A stretch of 64,000 nucleotides of DNA from Escherichia coli (GCF_016026235.1 NZ_CP065613.1); one strand, 5' to 3'; positions 4,075 through 60,152 are shown, counted from the stretch's first letter. Made by a program: numbers and translations. The notes: generated by a model from the sequence alone, not told the origin.

Positions 4075-5133
4075 ATGCTACCATCTATTTCAATCAACAA
4101 TACCAGCGCAACTTACCCAGAATCCATTAATGAAAATAACAATGATGAAGTTAATGGATTAGTACAAGAGCTCAAAAACCTTTTTAATGGTAAGGAAGGA
4201 ATAAGCACCTGTATTAAACATCTACTTGAGCTTATAAAAAACGCCATACGAGTAAACGACGATCCTTATAGATTTAATATTAATAATTCCTCAGTTACTT
4301 ATATTGATATTGGCTCCAATGATACAGACCATATTACTATTGGTATCGACAACTAAGAACCAATAGAATTACCTGCGAACTATAAAGACAAAGAACTCGT
4401 CCGTACTATCATTAATGACAACATAGTTGAGAAGACTCATGATATCAATAACAAGGAAATGATCTTCAGCGCATTAAAAGAAATATATGATGGAGTTCCT
4501 GGTTTTATCTTCGATAAGATATCACACAAACTCAGACATACGGTAACGGAATTTGATGAGAGCGGGAATAGCGAACCAACGGACTTATTTACCTGGTACG
4601 GTAAAGATAAAAAAGGCGACTCTCTCGCTATTGTAATTAAAAATAAAAACGGAAATGATTACTTATCTCTCGGTTACTACGATCAGGACGACTACCACAT
4701 TCAAAGAGGAATTCGTATTAATGGTGATAGTCTCACCCAATATTGTAGTGAAAAAGCCAGGAATGCTTCAGCGTGGTTTGAAAGCAGTAAAGCTATCATG
4801 GCAGAATCATTTGCAACAGGTTCCGATCATCAGGTTATAAACGAGCTCAACGGGGAAAGACTGAGAGAACCTAACGAAGTTTTTAAACGTTTAGGTCGAG
4901 CAATAAGATATAATTTTCAAGTGGACGATGCAAAATTTAGACGCGACAATGTAAAAGAAATAATTTCTAATTTATTCGCTAACAAAGTTGACGTTGACCA
5001 TCCTGAAAATAAACACAAAGACTTTAAGGATCTCGAAGATAACGTTGAAAAAAGACTTCAAAATCGCCAGGCGAAATATCAAAATGAAATTAATCAACTA
5101 TCTGCGCCAGGTGTTAATTTTGATGATAATTAA
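4075..5133 (+). pseudogene. yfdF: yfdF-like uncharacterised protein; the 352-codon frame is interrupted by an in-frame TAA at 4354-4356
   Basis: ORFs 4075..4356 and 4459..5133 are in the same frame with a single stop between (DN*EPIELPANYKDK...); AT-rich coding sequence. Confidence 0.75.
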
Positions 5134-5278
5134 AATTATTTTTCCAGTTTTTTGATTTTTCAACGCCTGAATATCGGAAATAGTCAGTGACGAACATCAG
5201 TATTTTTACATCATTACGTCCGGGTCATTGTCGGTTTATCTCCTTTTACTTGTGGTAATTGAGGGATAACAACAAAAA

Positions 5279-5305
5279 AGGTGAGTTTTGCGACTCACCT
5301 TTTTT
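5279..5305. terminator. Bidirectional hairpin GGTGAGT-TTTGCG-ACTCACC flanked by an A-run and a T-run, between convergent yfdF and mlaA
   Basis: Inverted repeat with T5 on the plus side and A6 on the other side. Confidence 0.6.
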
Positions 5306-5314
5306 ATTTGTTTC

Positions 5315-6070
5315 TTATTCAGAATCAATATCTTTTAAATCATCCTGAATCGCTTGTGCGTTCGGATTTTCCTGCGGTTTGAGTTCGCCGCCATTAGCGA
5401 TGAAATCATGACGCTGGAAGTACGCTTCGCGCACCATAATATAAGGATCGGACGACTGACGCAGCAGACCATCGGAATCCAGCAGCTGAGCGCGGGTTTC
5501 GATCCCTTCAAGCGTCCATTTACCCACAGACATCGGCCAGGTCAGCCAGGAAAGAACCGGGTAAAGACCATCCGCCATATCACCACCGTCATCACGCAGC
5601 GTGAAGCTACCGTAGAACGGTAACTGAACGTAAGGCCCATAACCCACGCCATAATGACCAAGCGTACTACCGAAGCGGTGAGGTTCAGTCCGTTGCAGTT
5701 TCGGGTTCGCCATCCCTGCAACATCAATAAAGCCGCCCATCCCCAAAATGGTGTTCAGGAAAAAGCGGGTAAAGTGGACCATCCCCTGATAAGGGTCGCC
5801 CTGCAAGAAGTAGTTAACCATCACCGCAGGTTCTTCAAGGTTGCCAGTAAAGTTGCTCAAACCATTACGCGCCGGTTGCGGAACATAATCACGCCAGGCG
5901 ACAGCGACCGGTCGAACAATATACGGGTCTAATACGTTGAAGTTGAAGTTGTACATGGTGCGGTTGAACCCTTCTAACGGGTCAGAACGCCCTTGCTGAT
6001 CTGTACCGGAACTCGCACACCCCACCAGAAGCGTAGTTCCCAGAGCAAGCGCCGACAGGCGAAGCTTCAT
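5315..6070 (-). CDS. mlaA: MlaA (VacJ) outer-membrane lipoprotein
   Basis: 251-aa ORF MKLRLSALALGTTLLVGCASS... with lipobox LVGC. Confidence 0.95.
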   Translation of the reverse strand: MKLRLSALALGTTLLVGCASSGTDQQGRSDPLEGFNRTMYNFNFNVLDPYIVRPVAVAWRDYVPQPARNGLSNFTGNLEEPAVMVNYFLQGDPYQGMVHFTRFFLNTILGMGGFIDVAGMANPKLQRTEPHRFGSTLGHYGVGYGPYVQLPFYGSFTLRDDGGDMADGLYPVLSWLTWPMSVGKWTLEGIETRAQLLDSDGLLRQSSDPYIMVREAYFQRHDFIANGGELKPQENPNAQAIQDDLKDIDSE

Positions 6071-6363
6071 AAATGTCTCCCTGTTTTTTTATGGCTTATG
6101 CAGTTTGCCATCCATGACGGAACGATACCGTATCCGCCTGTTTAGGTGTGGGCGATTGTAACAGCACGTCAACTGATGTCCAGACGCCCTGATTTGCTGA
6201 TTTGATCATAGCCTGGTAATCGCCGCCCTGTAGGCTACTTGATTCTATAGAAACAGAAAAAGGCAATCGCGGCCTTTTCTTCATTTTCAGAGTAACTCCC
6301 GCCAGTTGCGAGCAAAAAAGCCGCTACGCTTTAGCTATACGTGCTAATTCAAGAGAAGAGACC

Positions 6364-58093: not shown

Positions 58094-58170
58094 GCTATCT
58101 GCGATTTGCGAAATTGCCTGATGCGCTTCACTTAGCAGACTACTATTTCCGGCAATTCCTGTCTCCTCAC

Positions 58171-59055
58171 CTACTGTGTCAATGCAGCCAACAGCTTAAC
58201 CATCGCGGGCGTCACCTGCTGTGTTTCATAAACAATATATAAATCTGCAGGGATGCGCTGTTTGAGCGGACGGAAAATGACACCTGGCCAGTTCATTTGT
58301 GCGTAGCTGTCCGCTATCAATGTGATACCAATGCCCATACTGACCATAGCGAGTACCGTTTGCGGTTCATTAACTTCGCGAATAACAACCGGTGAAAATC
58401 CCACCTGCTGGCAAACTCGCTGCAAAAAATCCCAGTCAGTGTAAACGGGCGGCATTGTAACAAAATACTCGTCACGTAGCGCTTCCAGCGGGACGGTGGA
58501 AAATGATGAGAGATGATGCTCTTCAGGCATCGCCACCAGAAACGCCGATTCATGCAACCGTAAGCTGGTAAAACCAGTCGGTGGTTCTGTCGCCATTCGC
58601 CAGATCCCGGCATCAAGTTCGCGGCGTTCCAGCAAGGCCATTTGCATCGCGGGCATCTTTTCGCGAAAAAGAACGTCAACGTTAGGATTTTCCCTGAGGA
58701 ATCGCCGCATAACCGGGCGCATCCGTCCCCACATTGCCGTTCCCACTACGCCGAGTTCAATCCGCCCTGCTTCTCCCCGACCTATTTGTTCAACCCGAGC
58801 CAATACATTATTAGCATTCACCAGCAATCGACGCGATTCTTCCATCAAGATTTTGCCCGCGTGTGTCAGTACGACGCTGCGCGAATGGCGAATAAAAAGC
58901 TGCGTGCCGAGTTGATTTTCCAGTTCTTTAATATGAATACTGAGCGGAGGCTGAGACATATTTAAACGCGCTGCTGCGCGGCCAAAATGCAACTCTTCCG
59001 CTACGGCAAGAAAATAACGGAGCAACTTAAGATCTGTTCTGTATACGCGTTCCAT
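58171..59055 (-). CDS. xapR: XapR LysR-family activator of xanthosine catabolism (its xapAB targets are absent here)
   Basis: ORF trimmed to MERVYRTDLKLLRYFLAVAEELHFGRAAARLNMSQPPLSIHIKELENQLG... Confidence 0.9.
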   Translation of the reverse strand: MERVYRTDLKLLRYFLAVAEELHFGRAAARLNMSQPPLSIHIKELENQLGTQLFIRHSRSVVLTHAGKILMEESRRLLVNANNVLARVEQIGRGEAGRIELGVVGTAMWGRMRPVMRRFLRENPNVDVLFREKMPAMQMALLERRELDAGIWRMATEPPTGFTSLRLHESAFLVAMPEEHHLSSFSTVPLEALRDEYFVTMPPVYTDWDFLQRVCQQVGFSPVVIREVNEPQTVLAMVSMGIGITLIADSYAQMNWPGVIFRPLKQRIPADLYIVYETQQVTPAMVKLLAALTQ

Positions 59056-59158
59056 AATTAAGTGCTCCATATAATAAATACATCGTATTAAATTATCATG
59101 GCATAAAGTATTTCACCACCAGATATCCGACATACATAAACACGGTAATGACTCCAAC

Positions 59159-59662
59159 TTACTGATAGTGTTTTATGTTCAGATAATGCCCGATGACCTT
59201 GTCATGCAGCTCCACCGATTTTGAGAACGACAGTGACTTCCGTCCCAGCCTTGCCAGATGTTGTCTCAGATTCAGATTATGTCGCTCAATGCGCTGAGCG
59301 TAACGCTTGCTGATAACGTGCAGCTTTCCCTTCAGGCGTGATTCATACAGCGGCCAGCCATCCGTCATCCATACCACGACCTCAAAGGCCGACAGCAGGC
59401 TCAGAAGACGCTCCAGTGTGGCCAGAGTGCGTTCACCGAAGACGTGCGCCACAACCGTCCTCCGTATCCTGTCATACGCGTAAAACAGCCAGCGCTGACG
59501 TGATTTAGCACCGACGTAGCCCCACTGTTCGTCCATTTCAGCGCAGACAATCACATCACTGCCCGGTTGTATGCGCGAGGTTACCGACTGCGGCCTGAGT
59601 TTTTTAAGTGACGTAAAACCGTGTTGAGGCCAACGCCCATAATGCGTGCACTGGCGCGACAT
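59159..59662 (-). CDS. insB: IS1 InsB (expressed as an InsAB' frameshift fusion in IS1)
   Basis: 167-aa ORF ...[43 protein letters not shown]...; overlaps insA in the -1 frame. Confidence 0.9.
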
Positions 59663-59856
59663 CCGACGCCATTCATGGCCATATCAATGATTTTCTGGTG
59701 CGTACCGGGCTGAGAGGCGGTGTAAGTGAACTGTAGTTGCCATGTTTTACGGCAATGAGAGCAGAGATAGCGCTGATGTCCGGCAGTGCTTTTGCCGTTA
59801 CGCACCACGCCTTCAGTAGCGGAGCAGGAAGGACATCTGATGGAAATGGAAGCCAC
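59581..59856 (-). CDS. insA: IS1 InsA
   Basis: 91-aa [71 protein letters not shown]... Confidence 0.95.
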
Positions 59857-60152
59857 GCAAGCACCTTAAAATCACCATCATACACTAAATCAGTAAGTTG
59901 GCAGCATTACCCTTTTTCTGTAGGGTGGAATCTAACGCCTTTTTATAGCGAGGTTGTCCCGGCTCTTACCAATACACTTTTCTCACGCATTCAATAGCGA
60001 TTCGATATCGATGGATTTATATCTTTCCTCTATTAATCCACGGTAAAAACTGTATTGGCGATATTAATTCCTTTGCATTAACAATATGTCGTTTTTAGCA
60101 AACCACTTTATTAAGCAATCTACTAATAACGATCGGCATAGGGAATTATGCT

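Follow-up and report, generated by a model that had tools for sequence, protein, structure and literature searches.

The lesions in accessory genes along a 64-kb stretch of Escherichia coli DNA (the window, meaning the whole stretch analysed here) are probably the result of ordinary decay driven by insertion sequences (IS) in an IS-expanded E. coli clade that resembles Shigella and enteroinvasive E. coli (EIEC) and is associated with an invasion plasmid of the pINV type. The window contains an IS4 in the sucrose gene cscK, one copy of ISEc60 in fryC, a gene of a fructose-like phosphotransferase system (PTS), a second ISEc60 in intergenic DNA, and an IS1 where the xanthosine genes xapA and xapB should stand. 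In addition, yfdF carries a nonsense codon, and dsdC and the 5' part of the D-serine transport gene dsdX are absent. IS4 and both ISEc60 copies entered by simple transposition with target duplications, and 2,320 bp were lost beside IS1. An earlier interpretation made without knowledge of the origin of the DNA, hereafter the sequence-only reading, saw in these lesions a single pattern, in which every accessory module was hit and all housekeeping genes were spared; events of very different age and mechanism had thereby been lumped together. The oldest would be an ancient swap at argW, which gave about half of E. coli csc sucrose genes in exchange for dsdC and dsdX. The yfdF nonsense mutation and the two ISEc60 insertions would then predate the split from strain FDAARGOS_943. 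IS4 at codon 6 of cscK would be later, and the IS1 with the adjacent xapAB deletion would have arisen sometime after that split.

The window is collinear with the fadI to ligA region of E. coli K-12 (2.459-2.530 Mb). Every K-12 gene of this region, together with the csc genes of FDAARGOS_943, was compared with the window. Nearly all complete E. coli genomes matched it (5,425 of 5,426), and only one of them, FDAARGOS_943, was very close (99.9% identity). Exact-protein look-ups placed the window within a well-sampled clade of NCBI assemblies, where the clade-exact proteins carry the label E. coli. The window's exact variant of the ISEc60 transposase was recovered by the same means from a single assembly, GCA_900449985.1 (contig UGFA01000002.1), which is therefore either the source of the window or a twin of it. 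Contigs and assemblies of the relatives are designated below by L-numbers (L005, L006, L007 and so on), L006 being GCA_901482675.2, L002 being FDAARGOS_943, and L029-L033 being pieces of GCA_900449985.1 that hold ISEc60 copies.

When single-nucleotide polymorphisms (SNPs) were polarised by FDAARGOS_943, the relatives were ordered as FDAARGOS_943, then L007, then L006/L010, then L013, then the group of the window. The window has the yfdF stop and the two ISEc60 insertions in common with FDAARGOS_943, and the ISEc60 pair is also found in L018. The IS4 in cscK is absent from FDAARGOS_943 and L007 and present in L005, L006, L008 and L010. The xapAB genes are intact in FDAARGOS_943, and the IS1/delta-xapAB junction was confirmed by alignment in L024, L025 and L026, besides which about 20 other contigs of a similar kind are listed. 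Every gene-disrupting junction is common to other assemblies; the stop codon in the ISEc60 transposase is the only change private to GCA_900449985.1. Since the lesions are shared and were acquired stepwise, they belong to a natural clade and a single laboratory lineage is excluded as their source. The sequence-only reading had named such a long-term laboratory lineage as one example; in this version, relaxed selection on niche catabolism in a laboratory or single-culture lineage would have knocked out every accessory module. The accession of GCA_900449985.1 does have the format of a culture-collection project, the private stop is present in all five of its ISEc60 copies, and three IS events do strike accessory operons. 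Against these points stand the recurrence of the IS4, ISEc60 and delta-xapAB sites in the assemblies just named, the intactness of 12 of 16 accessory modules, and the ancient, widespread nature of the dsdCX loss, so that we regard this explanation as highly unlikely. The comparison with close relatives that had been put forward as a check showed shared lesions and a sister strain with a pINV-type plasmid, and gave no support to a laboratory origin. Misassembly of the IS copies or of the deletion is a still more remote prospect, to which we attach next to no weight: the two ISEc60 copies do not differ from one another and contain the same unexpected stop, but the insertions are flanked by matching target duplications, and the junctions recur in other, independent assemblies, with draft contigs breaking at them or reaching them.

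The nature of the lineage is indicated by its plasmid and its IS load. FDAARGOS_943 carries a 155-kb plasmid, NZ_CP065616.1, with ipaH9.8, ospG, ospC2, sepA, virK, capU, a fragment of an IpaH-type NEL ligase and dozens of IS. This content marks it as an invasion plasmid of the pINV type, but inspection of 149 of its 155 kb did not reveal the mxi-spa entry region. The chromosome of FDAARGOS_943 holds ISEc60 at about 33 places. Two 50-kb samples of it gave at least nine IS in one case and, in the other, no IS but four pseudogenes, three of which are transporters; as a genome-wide census this sampling was underpowered. The window itself shows IS expansion, with four IS in 64 kb versus one (IS186C) in the homologous K-12 region. 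In GCA_900449985.1, an ISEc60 flanked by the 10-bp duplication GGAAAGTCCC splits motA into parts of 229 and 59 amino acids (L029 2918-4211, outside the window), and the strain is therefore predicted to be non-motile. The cscK gene broken by IS4, the deleted xapAB and the split motA of GCA_900449985.1 would correspond to losses that recur convergently in Shigella. Taken together, the IS load, the pINV-type plasmid of the sister strain and the motA split are the signature of reductive evolution of the Shigella/EIEC type. As a separate observation, the plasmid holds at 59.4-61.6 kb (L016 9384-11619) a 2,231-bp copy of the 3' ends of evgS and yfdE, 98.5% identical to window positions 21423-23653 and bounded by IS600 and IS1, a captured piece of chromosome.

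The IS4 element (10118..11543, + strand) is 1,426 bp long, has an intact transposase open reading frame (ORF) and lies after nt 16 of cscK, in codon 6, between two copies of the 12-bp target duplication ATACTTTGGCTG (10106-10117 and 11544-11555). Its length, its duplication and a match to NF033592 (E = 1.5e-90) assign it to the IS4 subgroup of the IS4 family, whose members are about 1.4 kb long with TAATGCC... ends, a 10-13 bp target duplication and a single DDE transposase (PMC2266710). The insertion separates the distal part of cscK (nt 5-915; 9207..10117, - strand) from its start codon and promoter, which stay with the 5' stub (nt 1-16) on the cscA side, the ATG being the complement of 11557-11559. 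The next gene of the same operon, cscB (7888-9135, - strand), lies downstream, and its coding sequence is 100% intact. Thus, of the claimed hit on cscK and cscB, the IS4 in cscK was confirmed and damage to the cscB coding sequence was not.

The SNPs that distinguish the window from the IS4-free L007 are not clustered around the insertion site, indicating that IS4 inserted de novo in the clade; its import with another csc allele by recombination was rejected on this ground. The same junction, at the same nucleotide, was found in six unrelated complete E. coli genomes (789, CE0021a, JNEC-KY173, RMDEC465, ST865 and ST866). These come from poultry, cattle and human sources and show 98-99% identity, one being collinear over the whole 25 kb. 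Recurrence of IS4 at one nucleotide of cscK points to a hot spot set by the sequence, in which AAA-N4 precedes the 12-bp duplication and N4-TTT follows it. At a second IS4 site, beside crr, a T-run likewise lies 16 nt from the end of the IS. In L024 and L025, an IS4 end adjoins crr just outside the window region. The IS4 target consensus AAA-N20-TTT served as a lead only; a literature search for a published consensus returned duplication lengths alone, and empirical support comes from the recurrence in cscK and from the T-run at +16 at two sites.

Recurrence at the same nucleotide might also be expected if the losses had been positively selected, that is, if sucrose uptake, xanthosine catabolism and the Fry PTS were harmful in an invasive niche and had been discarded as pathoadaptive or antivirulence-type traits, in parallel with Shigella. 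The csc genes are destroyed in nearly all Shigella, and active selection against them has been suggested (PMC11251922). Growth on xanthosine, which is core in E. coli, and growth on sucrose are absent from all four Shigella metabolic models (PMC7373316, table S13), and IS4 occupies the identical cscK nucleotide in seven backgrounds, counting the clade of the window. However, the six other genomes have no recorded invasive pathotype, which fits a hot spot better than niche selection, and among the complete genomes with csc, about 2,684 in number, these six are the only ones to have the insertion. Moreover, FDAARGOS_943 possesses pINV-type genes and yet has intact csc and xapAB, and neither fry nor xap has a known link with virulence. 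We therefore consider positive selection unlikely, though worth keeping in view. Should the losses have been selected after all, a case to which we would give only a small chance, the IS4 hot spot at codon 6 of cscK would be a recurrent, ready-made off-switch for sucrose uptake.

Simple transposition is also apparent at the two ISEc60 sites. Copy 1 (43123..44416, - strand, 1,294 bp) belongs to the IS10 subgroup of the IS4 family and lies inside fryC after nt 257, as the sequence-only reading had noticed, with the 10-bp target duplication GAGAATTTCC at 43113-43122 and 44417-44426. It divides the gene into a 5' part (nt 1-257; 44417..44673, - strand) and a 3' part (nt 248-1248; 42122..43122, - strand). 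The upstream fryB (44695-45021) is intact. Copy 2 (51054..52347, + strand) is 100% identical to copy 1 in inverted orientation and is flanked by the 10-bp duplication GGGATAATTC at 51044-51053 and 52348-52357. Its insertion point is the loop of a terminator hairpin (GCCGGGGATAATTCCCCGG) between the convergent genes nupC and pdeA, and it breaks no gene. As K-12 carries IS186C in the same spacer (2514273-2515617), this hairpin has been struck independently by different IS and is a harmless landing pad. The elements were identified as ISEc60 by their CTGAGG... ends, by matches to NF033591 and by a difference of 1 nt from the copies of FDAARGOS_943 so named by the NCBI annotation pipeline PGAP. 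Elements of the IS10 subgroup are recognised by a length of 1.2-1.35 kb, CT... ends, a single transposase and a typical 9-bp duplication. For ISEc60, the duplication was of 10 bp and not 9 at four sites, GGGATAATTC, GGAAATTCTC, GGAAAGTCCC and GTGACCTCCC, and their comparison points to a target resembling GGRAnnTYCC. Another copy, on L031, has no matching duplications and is flanked by a ygcN-like gene and by a truncated gene for an FAD-binding oxidoreductase, where an IS1 truncates the neighbouring MFS gene. Identical ISEc60 copies were found on large plasmids of EIEC and Shigella dysenteriae; the literature searched offered incidental mentions of this element only.

In the window, the transposase of both ISEc60 copies is interrupted by an AGA>TGA stop (the A at 43619 on the + strand in copy 1; 51851-51853 in copy 2). 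The TGA is present in all five ISEc60 copies found in GCA_900449985.1, four of them matching the window copy exactly and one differing from it by 1 nt. The orthologous copies in fryC and between nupC and pdeA are intact in the sisters L018 and FDAARGOS_943, and L018 differs from the window by three SNPs in 21 kb, two of them being the transposase stop. The shared stop is either a dead allele spread by gene conversion or a consensus artefact; in the former case it could represent self-silencing of an IS family by gene conversion. The two inverted copies have served as substrates for rearrangement in FDAARGOS_943, where the 6.6-kb fryC'-fryB-glk-yfeO-ypeC-mntH-nupC segment between them is inverted and the 10-bp duplications are swapped. 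A similar inversion in the window was rejected, as each copy keeps its own duplication, and the window has the ancestral orientation.

The xanthosine locus was altered in a different manner. IS1 (59144..59911, - strand, 768 bp) lies between xapR (58171..59055, - strand), an intact regulator whose target operon is gone, and the intact yfeN (60153-60917). It replaces 2,320 bp, from 7 bp upstream of the xapA start through all of xapA and xapB and into a small DUF1427 ORF. The xapAB function had been described as interrupted: the function is indeed lost with an IS1 present, but the genes are deleted and not interrupted. An IS1 is expected to be 768 bp long with inverted ends of about 23 bp, insA/insB and a 9-bp target duplication. 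The element in the window agrees by its length, its ends (GGTAATGACTCC.../...GGCAGCATTACC) and a match to NF033558 (E = 2.7e-42), whereas no target duplication was found flanking it at 59144-59911. IS1 classically causes deletions adjacent to itself, and the lack of a duplication is consistent with such an event. The exact deletion was found in no complete RefSeq genome. In 57 complete E. coli genomes an IS1 is present no more than a few hundred bp from xapR (around window positions 58994-59293), a count that measures proximity to xapR and not the exact junction, as IS1 is abundant and neighbouring pieces were joined readily. The spacer on the xapR side is a recurrent landing area for IS1. An additional IS1 was observed inside yfdC in L006 (4033-4800); it is 91% identical to the xap IS1, so at least two IS1 isoforms have been active in the clade.

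The nonsense mutation in yfdF and the absence of dsdC and dsdX do not involve IS in the window. The yfdF pseudogene (4075..5133, + strand) is full length and AT-rich (34.9% GC), with one CAA>TAA change at codon 94 (4354-4356), exactly as first described. A 61-mer spanning the stop was found as an exact match in 4 of 3,056 yfdF-bearing complete E. coli genomes, FDAARGOS_943 among them; the three bovine isolates OkiPb01692, OkiPb01696 and OkiPb01714 also contain it. Compared with the K-12 allele, yfdF shows 37 non-synonymous and 6 synonymous codon differences, the majority of them in the C-terminal third. No match to yfdF was obtained in 44% of complete E. coli genomes, and yfdF of FDAARGOS_943 additionally holds an IS1.

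The csc island (7656..14440) has supplanted dsdC together with 1,120 nt at the 5' end of dsdX and lies next to the tRNA-Arg(CCU) gene argW (7372..7446, + strand). This gene anchors a variable island, which consists of csc in the window and of the CPS-53 prophage with dsdCXA in K-12. Besides cscB and the broken cscK, the island contains a DUF4942 fragment (7656-7808), an intact cscA (11774-13207, + strand) and an intact cscR (13215-14210, - strand). Relative to FDAARGOS_943, cscA has a 3-bp in-frame deletion, giving a protein of 477 instead of 478 amino acids, and the exact 477-residue protein marks the clade, on 30 contigs. Downstream of the island, a dsdX 3' remnant (nt 1121-1338; 14441..14659, + strand) is followed by an intact dsdA (14677-16005). 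Of 5,426 complete E. coli genomes, 2,684 (49%) have the junction between csc and the dsdX remnant. The loss of dsdC and dsdX, which the sequence-only reading had counted among the IS hits, is real as to the missing sequence, but it is an old csc-for-dsdCX island swap at argW with no IS event, and is not decay of this lineage.

When all genes of the region were considered, the remaining 45 reference genes outside the lesions were intact. Undamaged genes include 7 tRNA genes, gltX, glk, the ligA fragment, evgAS, emrKY and the oxalate genes oxc/frc/yfdE/yfdV, in agreement with the earlier statement on these genes. This intactness is uninformative in the case of gltX, ligA and the tRNA genes, since these cannot carry an IS in a viable cell. 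The statement that every accessory module is hit proved incorrect: about 12 of 16 modules are intact, and IS strike 3 of 16, or 4 if dsd is counted. The intact accessory genes include fadI, fadL, yfdC, dsdA, emrKY, oxc-frc-yfdE-yfdV, alaC, glk, yfeO, mntH, nupC, yfeN and yfeH, to which fryA, fryB, ypdE and ypdF can be added. Similarly, there are four IS as reported, but only three of them damage genes.

We then compared the distribution of the IS with chance. In an IS-free ancestral window, reconstructed at 61.5 kb, 63% of the coding bases that are not essential belong to catabolic and transport genes. Three of three genic IS would fall in such genes with a probability of 0.25, and at least three of four IS, with intergenic DNA included, with a probability of 0.39; Fisher tests on gene counts gave p = 0.07-0.21. 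With four IS in 64 kb, no excess of functional bias over chance was detected within the window. The pattern is striking yet carries no statistical weight because most non-essential genes of this region are catabolic or transport genes. Decay of dispensable functions in a specialised lineage, as implied by the proposed relaxed selection on niche catabolism, thus fits the observations, but the window provides no statistical functional bias in its favour. These numbers would equally suit a process of pure chance and mutational bias, in which IS insert at the sequences that they favour and become fixed by drift in a small population, function being irrelevant beyond non-essentiality. The clear target preferences of IS4 and ISEc60, the intergenic position of one IS, and the fact that ISEc60 elsewhere strikes motA and an island region are in line with it. 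It is nevertheless very unlikely to be the whole explanation, as published genome-wide data from Shigella show IS strongly depleted in coding sequence and lost functions significantly convergent, which indicates that selection filters insertions; it differs from decay under selection in degree only.

The decay that we favour would proceed as follows. IS copy number would have risen in a host-restricted lineage, target preference would partly set the landing sites of IS4, of ISEc60 and of IS1 near xapR, and purifying selection would remove harmful insertions, leaving survivors in cryptic or niche operons and in intergenic terminators. Accessory genes appear hit and housekeeping genes spared because this is the normal survivorship of reductive evolution, and not because every module was targeted. 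Several points weigh against this interpretation. Relaxed selection is itself inferred. The sample of four IS and one stop codon can neither prove nor disprove a functional bias, and with p = 0.07 the gene-count Fisher test gives a borderline value for the genes hit by IS. The pINV genes were shown in the sister strain FDAARGOS_943 only. Any effect of the IS4 on cscB would be polar, its expression being presumably lost. Likewise, as ypdF, ypdE and fryA are intact but lie downstream of fryC, a polar effect of the ISEc60 insertion on them is possible. The practical value of these results is small and lies in the precise IS4 hot spot in cscK and in the order of lesions in an under-described EIEC-like clade.

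Several of the events have known counterparts. At argW, the arrangement in the window shows no notable difference from the described argW-dsdCXA / cscRAKB polymorphism, with csc beside argW replacing dsdC and most of dsdX while dsdA is kept; according to Jahreis 2002 and Moritz & Welch 2006, as cited in PMC11251922, use of sucrose and of D-serine is mutually exclusive at this island. Inversion between inverted IS copies is seen in FDAARGOS_943, and the window has the same flanking pair with the segment uninverted. A lone IS1 without duplication that abuts the 2,320-bp loss of xapA-xapB corresponds to IS1-mediated adjacent deletion, which at xap cannot be separated by sequence from recombination between two IS1 copies. 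IS-mediated decay in E. coli of the Shigella/EIEC type is already known and has been described genome-wide. Hawkey et al. 2020 (PLoS Genet, PMC7373316) reported IS expansion in Shigella with genic/intergenic IS ratios of 0.11-0.29; genes lost in parallel showed no significant functional enrichment, and carbohydrate metabolism formed the largest class of pseudogenes. Like Shigella/EIEC, the lineage of the window has accumulated IS stepwise and in a lineage-specific manner, with IS1, IS4 and other elements expanded, metabolic and transport genes inactivated by IS, and insertions enriched in intergenic DNA; the predicted loss of xanthosine growth, sucrose growth and motility would be common as well, and the sister strain carries a pINV-type plasmid. 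It differs in being labelled E. coli and less decayed, with only four IS in 64 kb, and in its prominent element, ISEc60, which is outside the five IS highlighted for Shigella. In Shigella, cscA and cscR usually survive, and an IS1, IS3 or IS4 disrupts cscK or cscB (PMC11251922, Front Microbiol 2024). The window shows exactly this pattern, cscA and cscR being intact and the cscK-cscB operon knocked out by an IS, in this case IS4; it departs from it in that cscB is intact and the same insertion point is used in six complete E. coli not labelled Shigella.

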